From: Patescibacteria group bacterium
GTDB taxonomy: Bacteria; Patescibacteriota; CPR2; UBA1875; CAIMLA01
Length of the DNA stretch: 50,871 nt
Reading direction: 5' to 3'
Assembly (NCBI GenBank): GCA_028718325.1
Contig: JAQUMB010000002.1
Coordinates: 1-50,871 of the forward strand
A model generated the notes under the pieces. That model searched no databases and was not told the DNA's origin. It saw only the letters and a program-made list of their open reading frames with translations. The translations under genes were made by a program, and so were the position numbers. Below, in pieces: positions 22,099 through 47,331 of the stretch (position 1 is its first letter; every line of letters begins with the position of its first letter).

Positions 22099-22185
22099 TG
22101 GTGCCCGAGGCGGGACTCGAACCCGCAAGATGTTGCCATCAACGGATTTTAAGTCCGTCGCGTATACCAATTCCGCCACCCGGGC
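22099..22185 (-). tRNA. tRNA-Leu (anticodon UAA), CCA encoded
   Basis: Hand-folded from the reverse complement GCCCGGGTGGCGGAATTGGTATACGCGACGGACTTAAAATCCGT...GGGCACCA. The anticodon loop is CTTAAAA and the variable arm is long. Confidence 0.93.
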
Positions 22186-22253
22186 CTTTCACTGTATTCA
22201 GGGTGAACTGTACTAAAGCAAGCTTACATTGAGACCAAATTAATCGGTCGAAA

Positions 22254-22327
22254 TGGAGGCGTCGCCGGGATTCGCACCCGGGTAGACGGTTTTGCAGACC
22301 GTTGCCTAACTCCTCGGCCACGACGCC
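22254..22327 (-). tRNA. tRNA-Cys (anticodon GCA), CCA encoded
   Basis: Reverse complement GGCGTCGTGGCCGAGGAGTTAGGCAACGGTCTGCAAAACCGT...CGACGCCTCCA. The anticodon loop is CTGCAAA and the discriminator is U73. Confidence 0.93.
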
Positions 22328-22383
22328 TTATTATGTGTACTTGGCTCGAGTTTAAGCGTTATGTAGCACTTCGTCATTGAAAA

Positions 22384-22459
22384 TGGAGCGAGAGACGGGG
22401 TTCGAACCCGCGACCTCAACCTTGGCAAGGTTGCGCTCTACCAGCTAAGCTACTCTCGC
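22384..22459 (-). tRNA. tRNA-Gly (anticodon GCC), CCA encoded
   Basis: Reverse complement GCGAGAGTAGCTTAGCTGGTAGAGCGCAACCTTGCCAAGGTTG...CTCTCGCTCCA. The anticodon loop is TTGCCAA. Confidence 0.93.
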
Positions 22460-22573
22460 ACGTCAGCATTTGCTGACGTATTTCGTAGGTTGACTAGCAT
22501 CAACTACTTCATACTTTCGCAAAGCTTCCTTTTTCTCAAAAATCCTTCGATTTTTTGGGAGCCAAAATATATT

Positions 22574-22649
<76 letters not shown>

Positions 22650-22791
22650 ACGTCAGAATTCTCTTTATGTTCTCGCAAGTTTTCAACTTACTGTGGTTCT
22701 TCCTTTTCCGACAAAATCAGAAGCATTTTGTCGGGTAATCTAATTTTAAAGGATTTCTTTGAAATTCTCAAAAACTATTTACAAGAAACAA

Positions 22792-22868
22792 TGGTGGGCG
22801 ATGAGGGATTCGAACCCCCGACCCTCTCGGTGTAAACGAGATGCTCTAGCCAGCTGAGCTAATCGCCC
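22792..22868 (-). tRNA. tRNA-Val (anticodon UAC), CCA encoded
   Basis: Reverse complement GGGCGATTAGCTCAGCTGGCTAGAGCATCTCGTTTACACCGAGA...ATCGCCCACCA. The anticodon loop is TTTACAC. Confidence 0.93.
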
Positions 22869-22912
22869 GAAACTTTCATTATTTAGGAGATAAACGATGT
22901 AGGTTTGCGAAA

Positions 22913-22999
22913 TGGTGCGGACGAGAGGACTCGAACCTCCAAGACCTTACGGCCACTAGCCCCTCATGCTAGCGCGTATACCAATTCCGCCACGTCCGC
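22913..22999 (-). tRNA. tRNA-Leu (anticodon GAG), CCA encoded
   Basis: Reverse complement GCGGACGTGGCGGAATTGGTATACGCGCTAGCATGAGGGGCTAG...CGTCCGCACCA. The anticodon loop is ATGAGGG and the variable arm is long. Confidence 0.92.
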
Positions 23000-43927: not shown

Positions 43928-43936
43928 AAATGAAGC

Positions 43937-43966
43937 GCCCGGGTGCAGCATTTGCTGCACCCGGGC
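43937..43966. terminator. Perfect 13-bp GC-rich palindrome between the convergent mpg and GC-rich orphan genes
   Basis: GCCCGGGTGCAGC-attt-GCTGCACCCGGGC. On the minus strand it is followed by GCTTCATTTTTAT. Confidence 0.6.
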
Positions 43967-43971
43967 AATGA

Positions 43972-44295
43972 TCATGACGGCCAGCCGAGGACGAGGCGAT
44001 CCTTGTTGTAGGGCTGTCTTCCTTCCGGCATGATACCGAAGTCTTCCAACAGCTGGCAACCCACAACCCAAGTGCCGCCACAGCGCTGTCTGACGTCAAC
44101 GACGAGCCGACCCCGGAACGCTGAGCTGAACTTGTTGTAGGGTTCCGGTTCGGAAAGGATCTCCATCTTGACCCCGTCTTCAGGACCGTCACAAGCGAAG
44201 AAGCCAGTTACTTTGACGCCTGGCTTGAGCTGATCCGGTGAGGTGACCACGGGTTGAGTGGCGTAGAATTCATCGATTGCTTGGTCATCATTCAT
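43972..44295 (-). CDS. GC-rich orphan hypothetical protein (107 aa from the ATG; 109 aa from the upstream TTG)
   Basis: A GGAGAG Shine-Dalgarno sequence lies 6 nt before the ATG. GC3 bias is strong (GGC, GTC, CTC, AAG, GAC codons). Hand counts give 58-60% G+C over 43981-44100. I recognised no family. Confidence 0.6.
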   Translation of the reverse strand: MNDDQAIDEFYATQPVVTSPDQLKPGVKVTGFFACDGPEDGVKMEILSEPEPYNKFSSAFRGRLVVDVRQRCGGTWVVGCQLLEDFGIMPEGRQPYNKDRLVLGWPS

Positions 44296-44344
44296 GATCA
44301 ACTCTCCTTTGTTGGAGGGTACTCTTCTAACTTGAAGTTATATT

Positions 44345-44373
44345 ATAATAGCATATAAAAGTAAAAAAGTCAA
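44345..44373 (-). promoter_or_regulatory. Sigma70-type promoter for the GC-rich orphan gene
   Basis: The minus strand reads TTGACT (44373-44368), 17 nt, TATTAT (44350-44345), with an overlapping TATAAT at 44347-44342. Confidence 0.5.
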
Positions 44374-44384
44374 GATTATTGTGT

Positions 44385-44443
44385 AAAAAACAAGGAGCCG
44401 ATCTGTCGTTCTGTTCGCGAAAACAGTACTTCGTCACGGCTCC
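44385..44443 (-). terminator. Intrinsic terminator closing the structured non-coding locus
   Basis: The minus strand reads GGAGCCG...CTGTT-ttcgcg-AACAG...CGGCTCC followed by TTGTTTTTT. Confidence 0.6.
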
Positions 44444-44692
44444 AACCGCAGCTGAACAATATGCCTGCTTTTGGGCAGCTTATTGTTAGTAAACTGCAGC
44501 CACTCCTTTGTTAGACTTTTTGAAATTTAGATGGAGTCCAATAGCTCTAGCAGCTCCAGCTATGGCTTCTTTTATTCACCATAATTTTCACTGTAGTTGA
44601 ACCTAAAGGCTCCAGCCTTGGCACCTAAACCTCGCCAGCTTAACCGGGAGAATAATATCAACCTTTGATTAACACAATCTCACGGTTAAGGG
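44385..44692 (-). ncRNA. Candidate unclassified structured RNA of about 300 nt, or a highly structured 3' UTR of the PBP gene
   Basis: No ORF of 60 aa or more in any frame. An extended -10 (TGaTATAAT, minus strand, 44707-44699) lies just after the PBP stop. There are several long hairpins, for example CTTAACCG...CGGTTAAG at 44639-44690, and a 3' intrinsic terminator. Confidence 0.4.
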
Positions 44693-44712
44693 AACTAAAT
44701 TATATCACGGAA

Positions 44713-47331
44713 TTATTTTACATTGACAGAAATTTTTGCACTGGCGTTTTGGCCAATTTTGTCTGTGACTGTTGCTGTGATATCAACTGTGGAACCACTT
44801 GGTTTAGTAAAACTCACAGTGTATAAACTTCCGTTCAAAACAGCTTCTTTTGTCTGGCTGCCAATCTGTACGATGACAGATTGGACTTCGTTAGGGGCAG
44901 AGATACTCAAATTGACCGTATATGGTGACGAAAAATCATCACCATCCTTAAGGTCAGTGAAAGAGATTGTCGGCGTGCCTTGATTTAAAGGACAAGTATC
45001 TTGTCCAATCTGGCCTGCACCGGTAGTCGAATAGCCACTACTGGCTGCCCAAGCGTTGATAGGGGCAAACCACCTGCTATATGCAGCATCGGTCGAAGGA
45101 ATCTCTGCTGTTACTGAGTTAATCGTTCTAGTTTCAACCTTGCTTTGATCTGGAGGACAGCTATCATTAACTATTTTATTAGTAATAATATTTATTTTTA
45201 CTTCAGTTGCACCGACTGCGTTTTGCAAACTATACCAAGAAGGGAAAATGTCAGTAACAGTTTTACTACCTGTTGCTGGTTTCTTGCCAGTAATTGCATC
45301 TAGAGTAACGGTTTTTATGCCGCTTGGCCGAGTGAACTGTTCACTGGCCGTTCCGGCTAACGCTTTTGTCATGAAATCATGCCAAATTGGGGCGGCAGCA
45401 ATCGATCCACCGGCCTTGGTCATGGGGGTATTATCGTTATTACCGGCCCAGACTCCTGCTACCAAACTTGGGGTGTATCCCATTGTCCAAGCATCCTTAT
45501 AATCATTGGTTGTCCCGGTTTTAGCTGCGGCTGGTCGCCCACGAAGGGTTAATGGGCCTCCGGCACCAAAGACCTCAGCTCTTGCAGAATCATCAGATAA
45601 AACATTATTCATTAGATAAGAGATCTGAGGATCCAAGACTCGCTTGCCTTGTTTGTTTTTGTATTCATCAATTGTCTTGCCCTTAGAATCTTCAATTTTT
45701 ATGTACCAACTAGGATCTTGTTTAACCCCATTATTAGCGAAAACACCATATGCTCCGACCATATCAACGAGCTTAACCTCACCTGCTCCTAAAACCAAGG
45801 ATAGACCATATTGGCTTTTGTCGTTGAGGGTGGTAATTCCCATGGCATGAGCCGTATCTATCACATTATCCAGACCGGCAATATAAAGTGTTTTGACAGC
45901 GGGGATATTTAATGAGTTTTGCAATGCTTTCCTCATGGTTACCGGGCCACGAAAGCGACCGTCATAGTTATTGGGGTTATAACCTCCGCCAAAATCAGTT
46001 TTCAAATCATAAAGCACACTGCCTGGACCCCAATTATTTGTTTTCCAAGCGGTTGCATATGCAAAAGGTTTAAACGAAGAACCGGGCTGTCGGTCCATCA
46101 ATGATACATTCACATTCCCATCAATATCTTGATTGAAAAAATCACGACTACCAACCATCGCTAGTATTTGGCCGGTTTTGGGATCTTCGGCAACCAAAGA
46201 AGCGTTTGAAGCATTATAGGCTTTTCTGTTTTTATCAACGTTAGTAGCAACGGCCTCTTCCGCATATTGTTGTTTTTGGAGGTCTAGCGTGGTATAAACT
46301 TTCAGCCCTCCCTCATTAACGGTTTTCTCACCATATTTTTCGACTAGTTTTTCTTTTACGTACATAACAAAATGTGGGGCAGTAATAGATCCATATGGGT
46401 TATTTGAAAATGCGATTACTTCTTTTTGAGCGTTTTTTGCTTCTTCTTTGGTAATCATTTTTTGATTAGCCATGTCGTCTAGGACAGTGTCTTTTCTTTT
46501 CATCAACTCGGCCTTATTTGAGCCAAATGGAGAATAATAAGTCGGGGCTTGGGGCATAGCAGCTAAAACAGCACATTCTTGTAGATTTAAATTCTTAAGA
46601 TCTTTGTTAAAATAGGTTTTTGCGGCAACCTTTATGCCATAAGCATTTGAACCATACGGAATTTCATTCAAATACATCTTTAGAATGTCATCTTTTTTGT
46701 ACATCTGCTCGATCTCGATGGCCATGATAATCTCTTTGATTTTTCGAGAATAAGATCGCTCATTAGTCAACAGAGCATTCTTTACAAACTGTTGAGTGAT
46801 AGTTGAGCCACCTCCTTTTGATCTATCACCGAGAGCCACACCGGTAAAAGCACGCCCGATACCCATAATGCTAAAACCGCCATGCTTATAAAAGTCTTTA
46901 TCCTCAATGGCAATCGTAGCATTTTTACAATTTTGGGGAATTTCGTTCCAATCAGCTAAAATTCTGTTTTGATCCCCATGTATCTCGTACAAGAGCTTCC
47001 CATTTCGATCAAAAATTTGGGTTGATTGGGCGGAAATACGCGAATTTATTTTATTTGGAGTCGGTAAATCTTTGGCATACCAGGCAAAAAGGGCAAAGAT
47101 AACACCTAAAAAAATGATGGCGGCAAAACCAAGCTTTTTCCAGCCCTCACGAGTAGTAAATAGATTATGTATAAAGATTTTAGTGTTTTCTAAGTTAAAA
47201 CCGGAACCATGACGGACCCTCGGAACTCGTGTAGAACGGTAGCTTTGGGTTCTTCGCTTGGTTGCTTTTGGTTTTGAAAAAGTGTTATACCTCTGTCTTG
47301 AAAAACGTTTCTTCCTTTTTCCTAAAGGCAT
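44713..47331 (-). CDS. Class A penicillin-binding protein (PBP1A-type transglycosylase/transpeptidase) with an extra C-terminal domain
   Basis: GT51 motifs (IAIEDKDFYKHGG, GGSTITQQ) and transpeptidase motifs SSFKPF (SxxK), SLN and KTGTT. It has a basic N-terminal tail plus TM helix and a Cys-containing beta-rich C-terminus of about 200 aa. Confidence 0.93.
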   Translation of the reverse strand: MPLGKRKKRFSRQRYNTFSKPKATKRRTQSYRSTRVPRVRHGSGFNLENTKIFIHNLFTTREGWKKLGFAAIIFLGVIFALFAWYAKDLPTPNKINSRISAQSTQIFDRNGKLLYEIHGDQNRILADWNEIPQNCKNATIAIEDKDFYKHGGFSIMGIGRAFTGVALGDRSKGGGSTITQQFVKNALLTNERSYSRKIKEIIMAIEIEQMYKKDDILKMYLNEIPYGSNAYGIKVAAKTYFNKDLKNLNLQECAVLAAMPQAPTYYSPFGSNKAELMKRKDTVLDDMANQKMITKEEAKNAQKEVIAFSNNPYGSITAPHFVMYVKEKLVEKYGEKTVNEGGLKVYTTLDLQKQQYAEEAVATNVDKNRKAYNASNASLVAEDPKTGQILAMVGSRDFFNQDIDGNVNVSLMDRQPGSSFKPFAYATAWKTNNWGPGSVLYDLKTDFGGGYNPNNYDGRFRGPVTMRKALQNSLNIPAVKTLYIAGLDNVIDTAHAMGITTLNDKSQYGLSLVLGAGEVKLVDMVGAYGVFANNGVKQDPSWYIKIEDSKGKTIDEYKNKQGKRVLDPQISYLMNNVLSDDSARAEVFGAGGPLTLRGRPAAAKTGTTNDYKDAWTMGYTPSLVAGVWAGNNDNTPMTKAGGSIAAAPIWHDFMTKALAGTASEQFTRPSGIKTVTLDAITGKKPATGSKTVTDIFPSWYSLQNAVGATEVKINIITNKIVNDSCPPDQSKVETRTINSVTAEIPSTDAAYSRWFAPINAWAASSGYSTTGAGQIGQDTCPLNQGTPTISFTDLKDGDDFSSPYTVNLSISAPNEVQSVIVQIGSQTKEAVLNGSLYTVSFTKPSGSTVDITATVTDKIGQNASAKISVNVK

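Follow-up and report, generated by a model that had tools for sequence, protein, structure and literature searches.

Introduction

RNAs such as the raiA motif RNA, OLE, ROOL and GOLLD are encoded by stand-alone genes with raised G+C in AT-rich genomes, and combine multi-helix junction folds with extensive covariation, conserved unpaired blocks and functions that are not obvious from context. We describe here an RNA which resembles them in these respects, encoded directly after the gene for a class-A penicillin-binding protein (PBP) in a 50,871-nt stretch of patescibacterial DNA (assembly GCA_028718325.1, contig JAQUMB010000002.1; hereafter the window, whose coordinates are used throughout). 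It is shorter than OLE, ROOL and GOLLD, has no homology to any of these RNAs by Rfam 15, and differs from them further in its occurrence in Patescibacteria, its fixed PBP neighbour and its pair of competing helices. Based on comparison of homologous loci, we consider it likely that the locus is transcribed as a gene in its own right and encodes a structured non-coding RNA (ncRNA) of about 305 nt, representing a family that is uncatalogued in Rfam 15 and is found in a subset of Saccharibacteria-related Patescibacteria. Most likely, the RNA would act in trans by binding a protein or ligand, rather than as a leader or 3' untranslated region (UTR) element.

Other described RNAs share particular features with this locus. 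EutX/Rli55 (adenosylcobalamin aptamer) and SreA/SreB (S-adenosylmethionine) are also stand-alone, oppose a junction domain to an alternative helix, possess their own terminator, and change the exposure of a single-stranded element through helix competition. The present RNA differs in lacking a known aptamer and in carrying a Shine-Dalgarno (SD)-like motif instead of an ANTAR or mRNA-pairing site, and its putative switch is proposed only from covariation and thermodynamics. Among complete genomes of the Candidate Phyla Radiation (CPR), diverged RNase P RNAs have been reported that fall below Rfam cut-offs and are missing several helices (PMC8172020). These occur in the same group of organisms, are of similar length and G+C, and likewise escape default Rfam thresholds, whereas the present RNA is without the P4, CR-I and CR-V sequences and the P1-P4 topology. 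The enterobacterial small RNAs (sRNAs) derived from 3'UTRs, CpxQ, SroC and MicL, similarly follow a coding gene immediately, share its strand and use its terminator; in contrast, the present RNA is about 300 nt long, with a complex junction fold and its own conserved promoter, and we know of no Hfq or ProQ context in these organisms.

The genomes of Patescibacteria (CPR) measure some 0.7-1 Mb and contain almost no spare DNA. To our knowledge, few CPR ncRNAs beyond the universal ones have been described, and CPR genomes were included in neither of two large bacterial ncRNA surveys. Given such tiny genomes, the junction fold, invariant unpaired blocks, promoter and maintained competing helices reported below make it unlikely that the RNA would be retained without a function.

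A conserved, covarying RNA downstream of the PBP gene

An original prediction made from the letters of the window had placed a structured locus of about 300 nt in a gap of some 410 nt after the PBP gene, a gap free of open reading frames (ORFs) of 60 aa or more. The stop codon of the PBP ORF occupies 44713-44715 and the next ORF on the minus strand starts at 44301 or 44295, leaving a gap of 411-417 nt in which the longest ORF is 36 aa. G+C is also raised, as predicted, at 43.5% for the RNA compared to 28.9% for the spacer on its 3' side and 38% for the whole window.

Searches with the PBP protein against species-representative genomes recovered homologs from Saccharibacteria and other Patescibacteria metagenome-assembled genomes (MAGs), the closest eleven sharing 57-79% identity. 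Synteny is retained around these genes, with RecG and tyrosyl-tRNA synthetase (TyrRS) on one side of the PBP gene and convergent MPG glycosylase, PIN/TRAM and ClpC genes on the other; the first conserved gene beyond the RNA is that for MPG glycosylase, both in the window and in the eight homolog loci whose downstream genes were examined. Conservation of the intergenic region in related genomes, a check proposed with the original prediction, was assessed using nhmmer, which matched eight loci, each directly 3' of the PBP gene, with E-values of 1e-44 to 2e-15. Nine sequences were used to build a covariance model, R1, which scores 264.5 bits at the window and 52-293 bits in 16 other lineages. R1 added loci L009 and L011, along with two metagenome contigs and one duplicate, and further matches were obtained via PBP homologs in L151, L155 (a WS5 MAG), L156 (Howlettbacteria), L158 and L165. 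In all, the RNA was found in 17 distinct lineages, including Saccharibacteria, Howlettbacteria and WS5 MAGs, always on the strand of the PBP gene and right after it.

Four further loci (L010, L012, L013 and L014) gave no RNA match when searched with filters off. At RNA-less loci (L152-L154, L159-L164, L010, L014) a convergent MurB, PIN/TRAM or ABC gene lies 1-40 nt beyond the PBP gene; another pattern has a co-oriented gene after PBP, encoding a VTT/DedA-domain protein in L160 and a 230-aa ORF in L010. We also scanned metagenomes for the pattern TCCCGG-N(16-26)-GCCNNGGCT-N(92-122)-CAAAGGA, which occurs in at least 120 stretches. Among the matches listed, only L022, L105 and L107 are genuine by the covariance model, with nearly all others arising by chance. 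The same pattern matched viral contigs 11 times, none of these being genuine, such that no copy of the RNA was found there.

The minus strand of the locus is predicted to fold at -102.8 kcal/mol (z = -3.65), with none of 100 shuffled sequences as stable, and the plus strand folds more weakly (z = -2.64). From the nine sequences RNAalifold predicted 52 pairs, 24 of which display compensatory changes. When the alignment was extended to 16 sequences using the model, 91.2% of pair cells were standard, compared with 76.5% after column shuffling and about 42% with partners slid by 1-3 columns; 35 of the 52 pairs and 124 cells are changed on both sides, and no measure was matched by any of 500 shuffles. 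Since the model alignment is fitted to the structure, the counts were repeated on a plain MAFFT alignment, where the core helices are paired in 81.6% of cells versus 72.7%, with 61 doubly changed cells and again 0/500 shuffles. Covariation is therefore strong in the 16 homologs with or without fitting, a property that the original prediction had proposed to examine. Pairs dominated by G-U are common (column pairs 89/201, GU:11; 157/172, UG:13; 339/344, UG:13). On the plus strand they would read as C-A mismatches, which identifies the minus strand, that of the PBP gene, as the one transcribed.

Codon-periodic conservation, named beforehand as a sign of a missed or degraded gene, was looked for among the homologs and not seen: variability is 0.278, 0.264 and 0.266 in the three codon phases, no frame is open across homologs, the longest stop-free frames switch both frame and strand, and insertions and deletions are mostly of 1-2 nt. 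The locus is thus not a gene remnant. Taken together, these comparisons show that the RNA at 44385-44694, on the strand of the PBP gene, is conserved, covarying and non-coding, as judged from its predicted pairing.

Architecture of the fold

The comparative structure model shows a fold in five parts (Table 1), comprising the P1/H1 hairpin, the long-range closure by P-a and P-b, the 9-bp helix P-c, a four-way junction from which three hairpins extend, and finally H6 and the terminator H7.

Table 1. Coordinates of the RNA, its predicted elements and other features of the window
Feature	Position	Strand	Basis or remark
RNA gene	44385-44694 (R1 span); predicted transcript ~44692 to ~44387, ~305 nt	-	R1 and covariation
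Extended -10, TGATATAAT	44699-44707	-	6 nt after PBP stop codon; predicted start ~44692
Segment A, CUUAACCGUGAGA, 5' arm of local helix P1	44678-44690	-	Inverted repeat; pairs with segment B
H1, variable hairpin capping P1	44652-44677	-	Hairpin in every homolog, sequence different each time
Segment B, UUCUCCCGGUUAAGCU, shared strand	44637-44652	-	Pairs with A (P1) or C' (P-a, P-b)
Central domain	44518-44636	-	P-c, P-d and P-e leading to four-way junction with H3, H4, H5
P-c, 9-bp helix	44622-44630 with 44525-44533	-	8/9 pairs compensatory
P-d and P-e, short helices	44614-44621 with 44538-44546	-	Formed by conserved UGCCAAGGCU and AGAGCUACGG
H3	44599-44612	-	UNCG-type loop (UACG or CACG) in most homologs
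H4	44562-44582	-	Conserved 11-nt A-rich loop GAAUAAAAGAA; 5/5 stem pairs compensatory
H5, small variable hairpin	~44547-44561	-	Junction arm
Segment C', AGUCUAAC-AAA-GGAGUG, 3' partner of B	44501-44517	-	Closes central domain; covariation
SD-like motif, CAAAGGAG	44503-44510	-	Inside segment C'
H6, long hairpin with internal loop	44446-44499	-	Apical motif (U)GCC(C/U)AAA; GCCCAAA loop
H7, intrinsic terminator	44385-44447	-	Outer stem GGAGCCG with CGGCUCC; CUUGU and U-rich tail at 44385-44393
H7, duplicated 5' arm	44437-44447	-	GGUUG then GGAGCCG
H7, inner hairpin	44408-44429	-	Carries GUUUUCGCGAAC, identical in 13/17 sequences
H7, palindrome at hairpin tip	44412-44419	-	8 nt
PBP ORF, 872 aa	44713-47331	-	Pfam Transgly and Transpeptidase (class-A PBP)
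Sigma-70-like promoter of next gene	44373-44345	-	In AT-rich spacer after RNA
Orphan 109-aa ORF, 55.8% G+C	43972-44301 (flanks 43930-44384)	-	Own promoter and strong GC-rich hairpin terminator
L19-like ORF, 229 aa	36427-37116	+	
Six tRNA genes	22099-22999	-	

The 5' hairpin corresponds to a nested hairpin of the original prediction, whose 13-nt arms (44639-44651 and 44678-44690) are 92% complementary. Sequence conservation is concentrated in a small number of blocks. UCCCGG of segment B is nearly invariant, as is CAAAGGA of segment C', which is identical in the nine closest homologs and differs by one base in only 1 of 16 (L151, CUAAGGAG). Conserved single-stranded blocks comprise UGCCAAGGCU, GGUGAAUAAAAGAAGCC and AGAGCUACGGAC. 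The stem of H6 differs in sequence by lineage while a hairpin of -10 to -24 kcal/mol is predicted in every homolog, and its GCC..AA motif, invariant in the nine closest homologs, is mostly invariant or nearly so across the 16. Compensatory changes in P-c and H4 also hold on the MAFFT-only alignment.

Of the middle helices proposed earlier, the hairpin GCAG-AACAATA-TGCC was recovered as H6. Pairings of CCATAGCT with AGCTATtGG and of ACTCC with GGAGT are unsupported, as their bases belong to covarying H4, P-e and the B:C' closure. Similarly, the window does contain the direct repeats TTTAGGT x2 and GCTGGAGC x2, which are not conserved in homologs and both look incidental by this comparison. A search of all column pairs for further helices or pseudoknots returned only the known helices and invariant complementarities such as AAGGAG:CUCCUU. 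Three tertiary candidates, namely pairings of the terminator UCGCG loop with 5' CGUGA and of the A-rich loop in H4 with a UUUUC run, and an 11-nt GAAA-receptor, were rejected by eye, being neither covarying nor conserved.

Segment B can pair with either A or C', and the two helices differ in the nature of their support. On an alignment unfitted to structure, B:C' is paired in 86.2% of cells, versus 78% in shuffles and 38-55% with partners slid, and none of 500 shuffles reaches its 20 cells changed on both sides; on the covariance-model alignment 90.5% of cells are paired. For example, between L005 and L007 a change of UUUAAC to UUUGAC in B is answered by a U to C change in C'. Within P1, pair 9/63 varies without ever being unpaired (AU:8, GC:4, GU:4), and pair 13/59 (GC:6 and AU:1) is A-U in L156 alone, segment B there reading CUCUC. 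On a sequence-only alignment six P1 pairs are changed on both sides, a number reached by 5/500 shuffles. The ensemble probability of P1 is 0.8-1.0 in 13 of the 16 homologs, with B:C' prevailing only in L011. Comparative support is accordingly stronger for B:C' and moderate for P1, and predicted thermodynamics points the opposite way.

Evidence for a separate transcription unit

The extended -10 promoter originally reported as TGaTATAAT at 44707-44699 is present, with no recognisable -35 element upstream of TGATATAAT; the absence of a -35 is usual for promoters of this type. Across homologs, TGnTAnAAT begins 8-15 nt upstream of the R1 start in 11 of 16. The motif itself occurs only 1-8 times per 5-10 kb locus, counting both strands. 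Within the window alone it is no commoner than chance, with 11 found where 9 are expected, and evidence for the promoter lies in its conserved position and not in its presence.

At the other end of the RNA, the GGAGCCG...CGGCTCC stem followed by TTGTTTTTT that had been noted at 44443-44385 was also identified, and a terminator hairpin occupies this place in all homologs (-17 to -29 kcal/mol), followed by CUUGU and U/A-rich sequence. Compensatory changes affect 4 of 5 pairs in the outer stem of H7 and 7 of 9 in its inner hairpin. The core clade has a terminator with a duplicated 5' arm, which allows an alternative register in which GGUUG pairs with CGGCU, besides that of GGAGCCG with CGGCUCC, and lineages with the shorter arm use only the GGUUG register. 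The tip of the inner hairpin is an 8-nt palindrome, UUCGCGAA in 13 sequences and UUCUAGAA or UUCUAGAG at the homologous position in the remaining four (L158, L165, L155 and L009). Its role could lie in dimerisation or protein recognition, or the palindrome may be coincidental.

These features are consistent with the core of the original prediction, that of a roughly 300-nt structured RNA with its own extended -10 and terminator and with no known family, and it is on these grounds that we consider a separate gene likely. A number of observations weigh against this reading. The start, end and independent transcription of the RNA are predictions from sequence alone. Its strand and its position immediately after the PBP gene are invariant in 17 lineages. 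In the window, with a -10 only 6 nt beyond the PBP stop codon and no terminator in between, read-through from the PBP gene would carry the RNA as a 3'UTR. The RNA is not at the post-PBP position, the position surveyed, in nine related lineages and, if truly absent from these, it is not essential. Further, P1 is paired in 77% of cells, with its outer pairs often broken, and 18-49 of 500 shuffles reach some of its measures, while A, B and C' are purine- or pyrimidine-rich and of low complexity, such that part of their complementarity is cheap.

The first of these points bear on an alternative in which the PBP mRNA has the RNA as its structured 3'UTR, or yields it from there as a processed sRNA; the RNA would then be transcribed mainly by read-through from the PBP promoter and would contribute to PBP mRNA stability or serve as a 3'UTR-derived regulator. 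No terminator was found between the PBP stop and the RNA in the window, L001-L004, L006, L008 and L151, from which it follows that the terminator of the RNA is in these loci also that of the PBP gene. Conversely, 11 of 16 homologs keep the extended -10 at a constant distance from the RNA, an additional terminator hairpin separates the PBP stop from the -10 in L005 and L007, and in L009 and L156 the RNA is set apart from the PBP gene by an AT-rich spacer of 285-363 nt. On balance we regard a pure 3'UTR origin, and with it the roles proposed for such an element, as unlikely. The original prediction had left the choice between an independent ncRNA and a 3'UTR product open; the terminators of L005 and L007 and the spacers of L009 and L156 favour the former, although the two origins are compatible and both transcripts may be made.

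A possible conformational switch

The opposition between comparative and thermodynamic support for B:C' and P1 suggests either a conformational switch or a fold whose conserved state is reached only with the help of tertiary contacts, a ligand or a protein. In a switch, the local P1 helix would form first, with the covarying long-range B:C' helix as the alternative. The first state would have A paired with B and the SD-like CAAAGGAG largely unpaired and exposed; in the second, B:C' would close the junction domain, hide CAAAGGAG and free segment A. A ligand or protein on the four-way-junction domain would stabilise B:C' against the default A:B, and the hiding or exposing of CAAAGGAG, an SD mimic, or of the freed 5' strand might in turn tune the availability of 30S subunits and their anti-SD, or that of a set of mRNAs. 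This could make the RNA a member of a new trans-acting, switchable sensor class in ultra-small Patescibacteria or, failing that, its junction domain might represent a new catalytic or ribonucleoprotein core; we offer both only tentatively.

The same helices could be read as a riboswitch or attenuator acting in cis, in which the junction domain is the aptamer and the contest among A, B and C', together with pairing of C' to CUCCUU, sets termination against read-through. Such a device would explain why covarying, mutually exclusive helices precede a terminator, and a co-oriented gene does follow in the window, L003 and L158. It would also account for the complementarity of AAGGAG (columns 242-247) to CUCCUU of the terminator 3' arm (columns 364-369), which extends to 97% of cells and, being invariant, is beyond the reach of a covariation test. 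We nevertheless consider cis regulation quite improbable. The next gene is convergent in L006, L151, L155 and L156, where it starts ~0-130 nt after the end of the RNA and leaves nothing to regulate; the co-oriented downstream genes of the other three loci are unrelated to each other or orphan, that of the window having its own promoter. In addition, the ensemble probability of C':CUCCUU is ~0 in every homolog, and no Rfam riboswitch matches.

Comparison with known RNA families

An Rfam scan had been suggested as a check, a confident match being one that would reclassify the locus as known. At gathering thresholds, Rfam 15 identified only six tRNAs in the whole window, and at E<=10 it returned scattered snoRNA/miRNA noise for the RNA region and noise with no recurring family for three divergent homologs (L156, L009 and L151). 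A literature search found no description of this RNA.

The report of CPR RNase P RNAs that elude Rfam led us to examine RNase P by hand, as part of a wider possibility that the locus encodes a highly diverged housekeeping RNA (RNase P, 6S, SRP or tmRNA) missed by the Rfam models. A length of ~305 nt, raised G+C and a multi-helix fold would fit such an RNA, and in our reading the 3' motif CGGCU(U/C)CUUG loosely resembles CGGCUUA of the P4 3' strand. The hallmark motifs, topology and end-pairing fail, however. P4 sequences GAGGAAAGUCC (CR-I; GAAAGUC, AAAGUCC) occur in 0/16 homologs, ACAGAA and GGCUUA of CR-V are sporadic, appearing in one or two sequences at non-homologous positions, and candidate P4 strands lie ~40 nt apart instead of being split by a whole specificity domain. 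Neither RF00010 nor RF00011 matches at E<=10 in four homologs, a search that scores below ~11 bits would escape. Similarly rejected were tmRNA, for which ARAGORN detected the six tRNAs only, RF00023 did not match, and neither a conserved GUUCRA T-loop nor a 3' CCA was found; 6S RNA, which is a rod closed by 5'/3' pairing whereas the present RNA has four independent domains and unpaired ends, with no RF00013 match; and SRP RNA, with no RF00169 or RF01854 match and GGAAGCA in 0/16 sequences. None of RF00010, RF00011, RF00013, RF00023 and RF00169 thus matches the four divergent homologs at E<=10, and the nine related lineages without the RNA at this locus also argue against a diverged housekeeping RNA, a reading that we judge very improbable. 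A T-box leader was considered as well and rejected, there being no RF00230 match and the downstream genes being convergent or unrelated; the TyrRS gene is found not downstream but on the opposite strand, upstream of the PBP gene.

The downstream slot and coding potential

Between the RNA terminator and the MPG gene lies a slot that is variable in content, corresponding to 43928-44384 in the window, which holds the orphan ORF, to 6182-6814 in L158 and to 5535-5915 in L165. By lineage, its contents include an orphan ORF, a 210-aa ORF and a dCMP deaminase, and it is empty in L006, L151, L155 and L156. From its ATG at 44295 the neighbouring ORF of the window encodes a 107-residue protein with no Pfam match and no relative among 5.8 billion proteins; the only related ORF, 47% identical, occupies the same place in L003. 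This ORF of high G+C looks horizontally acquired.

The original prediction had suggested that the RNA might have arrived with this compositionally foreign gene. RNA genes are classic integration targets, and the variable slot, occupied by an orphan ORF in two loci (the window and L003) and by different genes in L158 and L165, would suit either mobile-element cargo or an attachment site for such elements. Co-arrival is largely refuted, though, by the four loci in which the RNA is syntenic where the slot is empty, and more generally the RNA is vertically syntenic across lineages whose PBPs share 57-79% identity. No match was found in viral contigs, no second copy of the RNA 3' end occurs in the window, at the flanks of the insert or elsewhere, and no integrase is nearby. 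We hold a mobile origin to be highly improbable. Given that the neighbouring ORF is shared only with L003 and that slot contents differ, the slot is a variable insertion point and the RNA is older than what it contains.

We give almost no credence to a missed or degraded protein gene, or to translation of a small ORF starting from the SD-like CAAAGGAG within the RNA, since, despite a perfect SD-like motif in nearly all homologs, an ATG two bases after it in L005 and L007 and a called 79-aa ORF in L155, homologs share no start codon at a spacing that would work, the stretch that follows the motif is the covarying H6 hairpin with insertions and deletions of 9-13 nt, and the codon-phase, reading-frame and indel patterns described above are not those of a coding sequence. 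The 79-aa ORF of L155 (5671-5910) overlies the RNA homolog in a public assembly and probably reflects a miscalled gene, due to the RNA not being annotated.

The RNA accordingly offers a concrete target whose boundaries, structure model and exclusive helix pair are all directly testable. R1 and its 17 homologs represent a possible seed alignment for a new RNA family, an entry for which would help to annotate MAGs, as in the case of L155.

Other features of the window

The six tRNA genes of the window lie within 900 nt and comprise Leu-TAA, Cys, Gly-GCC, Phe, Val-TAC and Leu-GAG. Also identified was an ORF resembling ribosomal protein L19, the second half of which is a long acidic tail rich in E, D and K. 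As read from the translation, this tail brings the protein to about twice the usual length.

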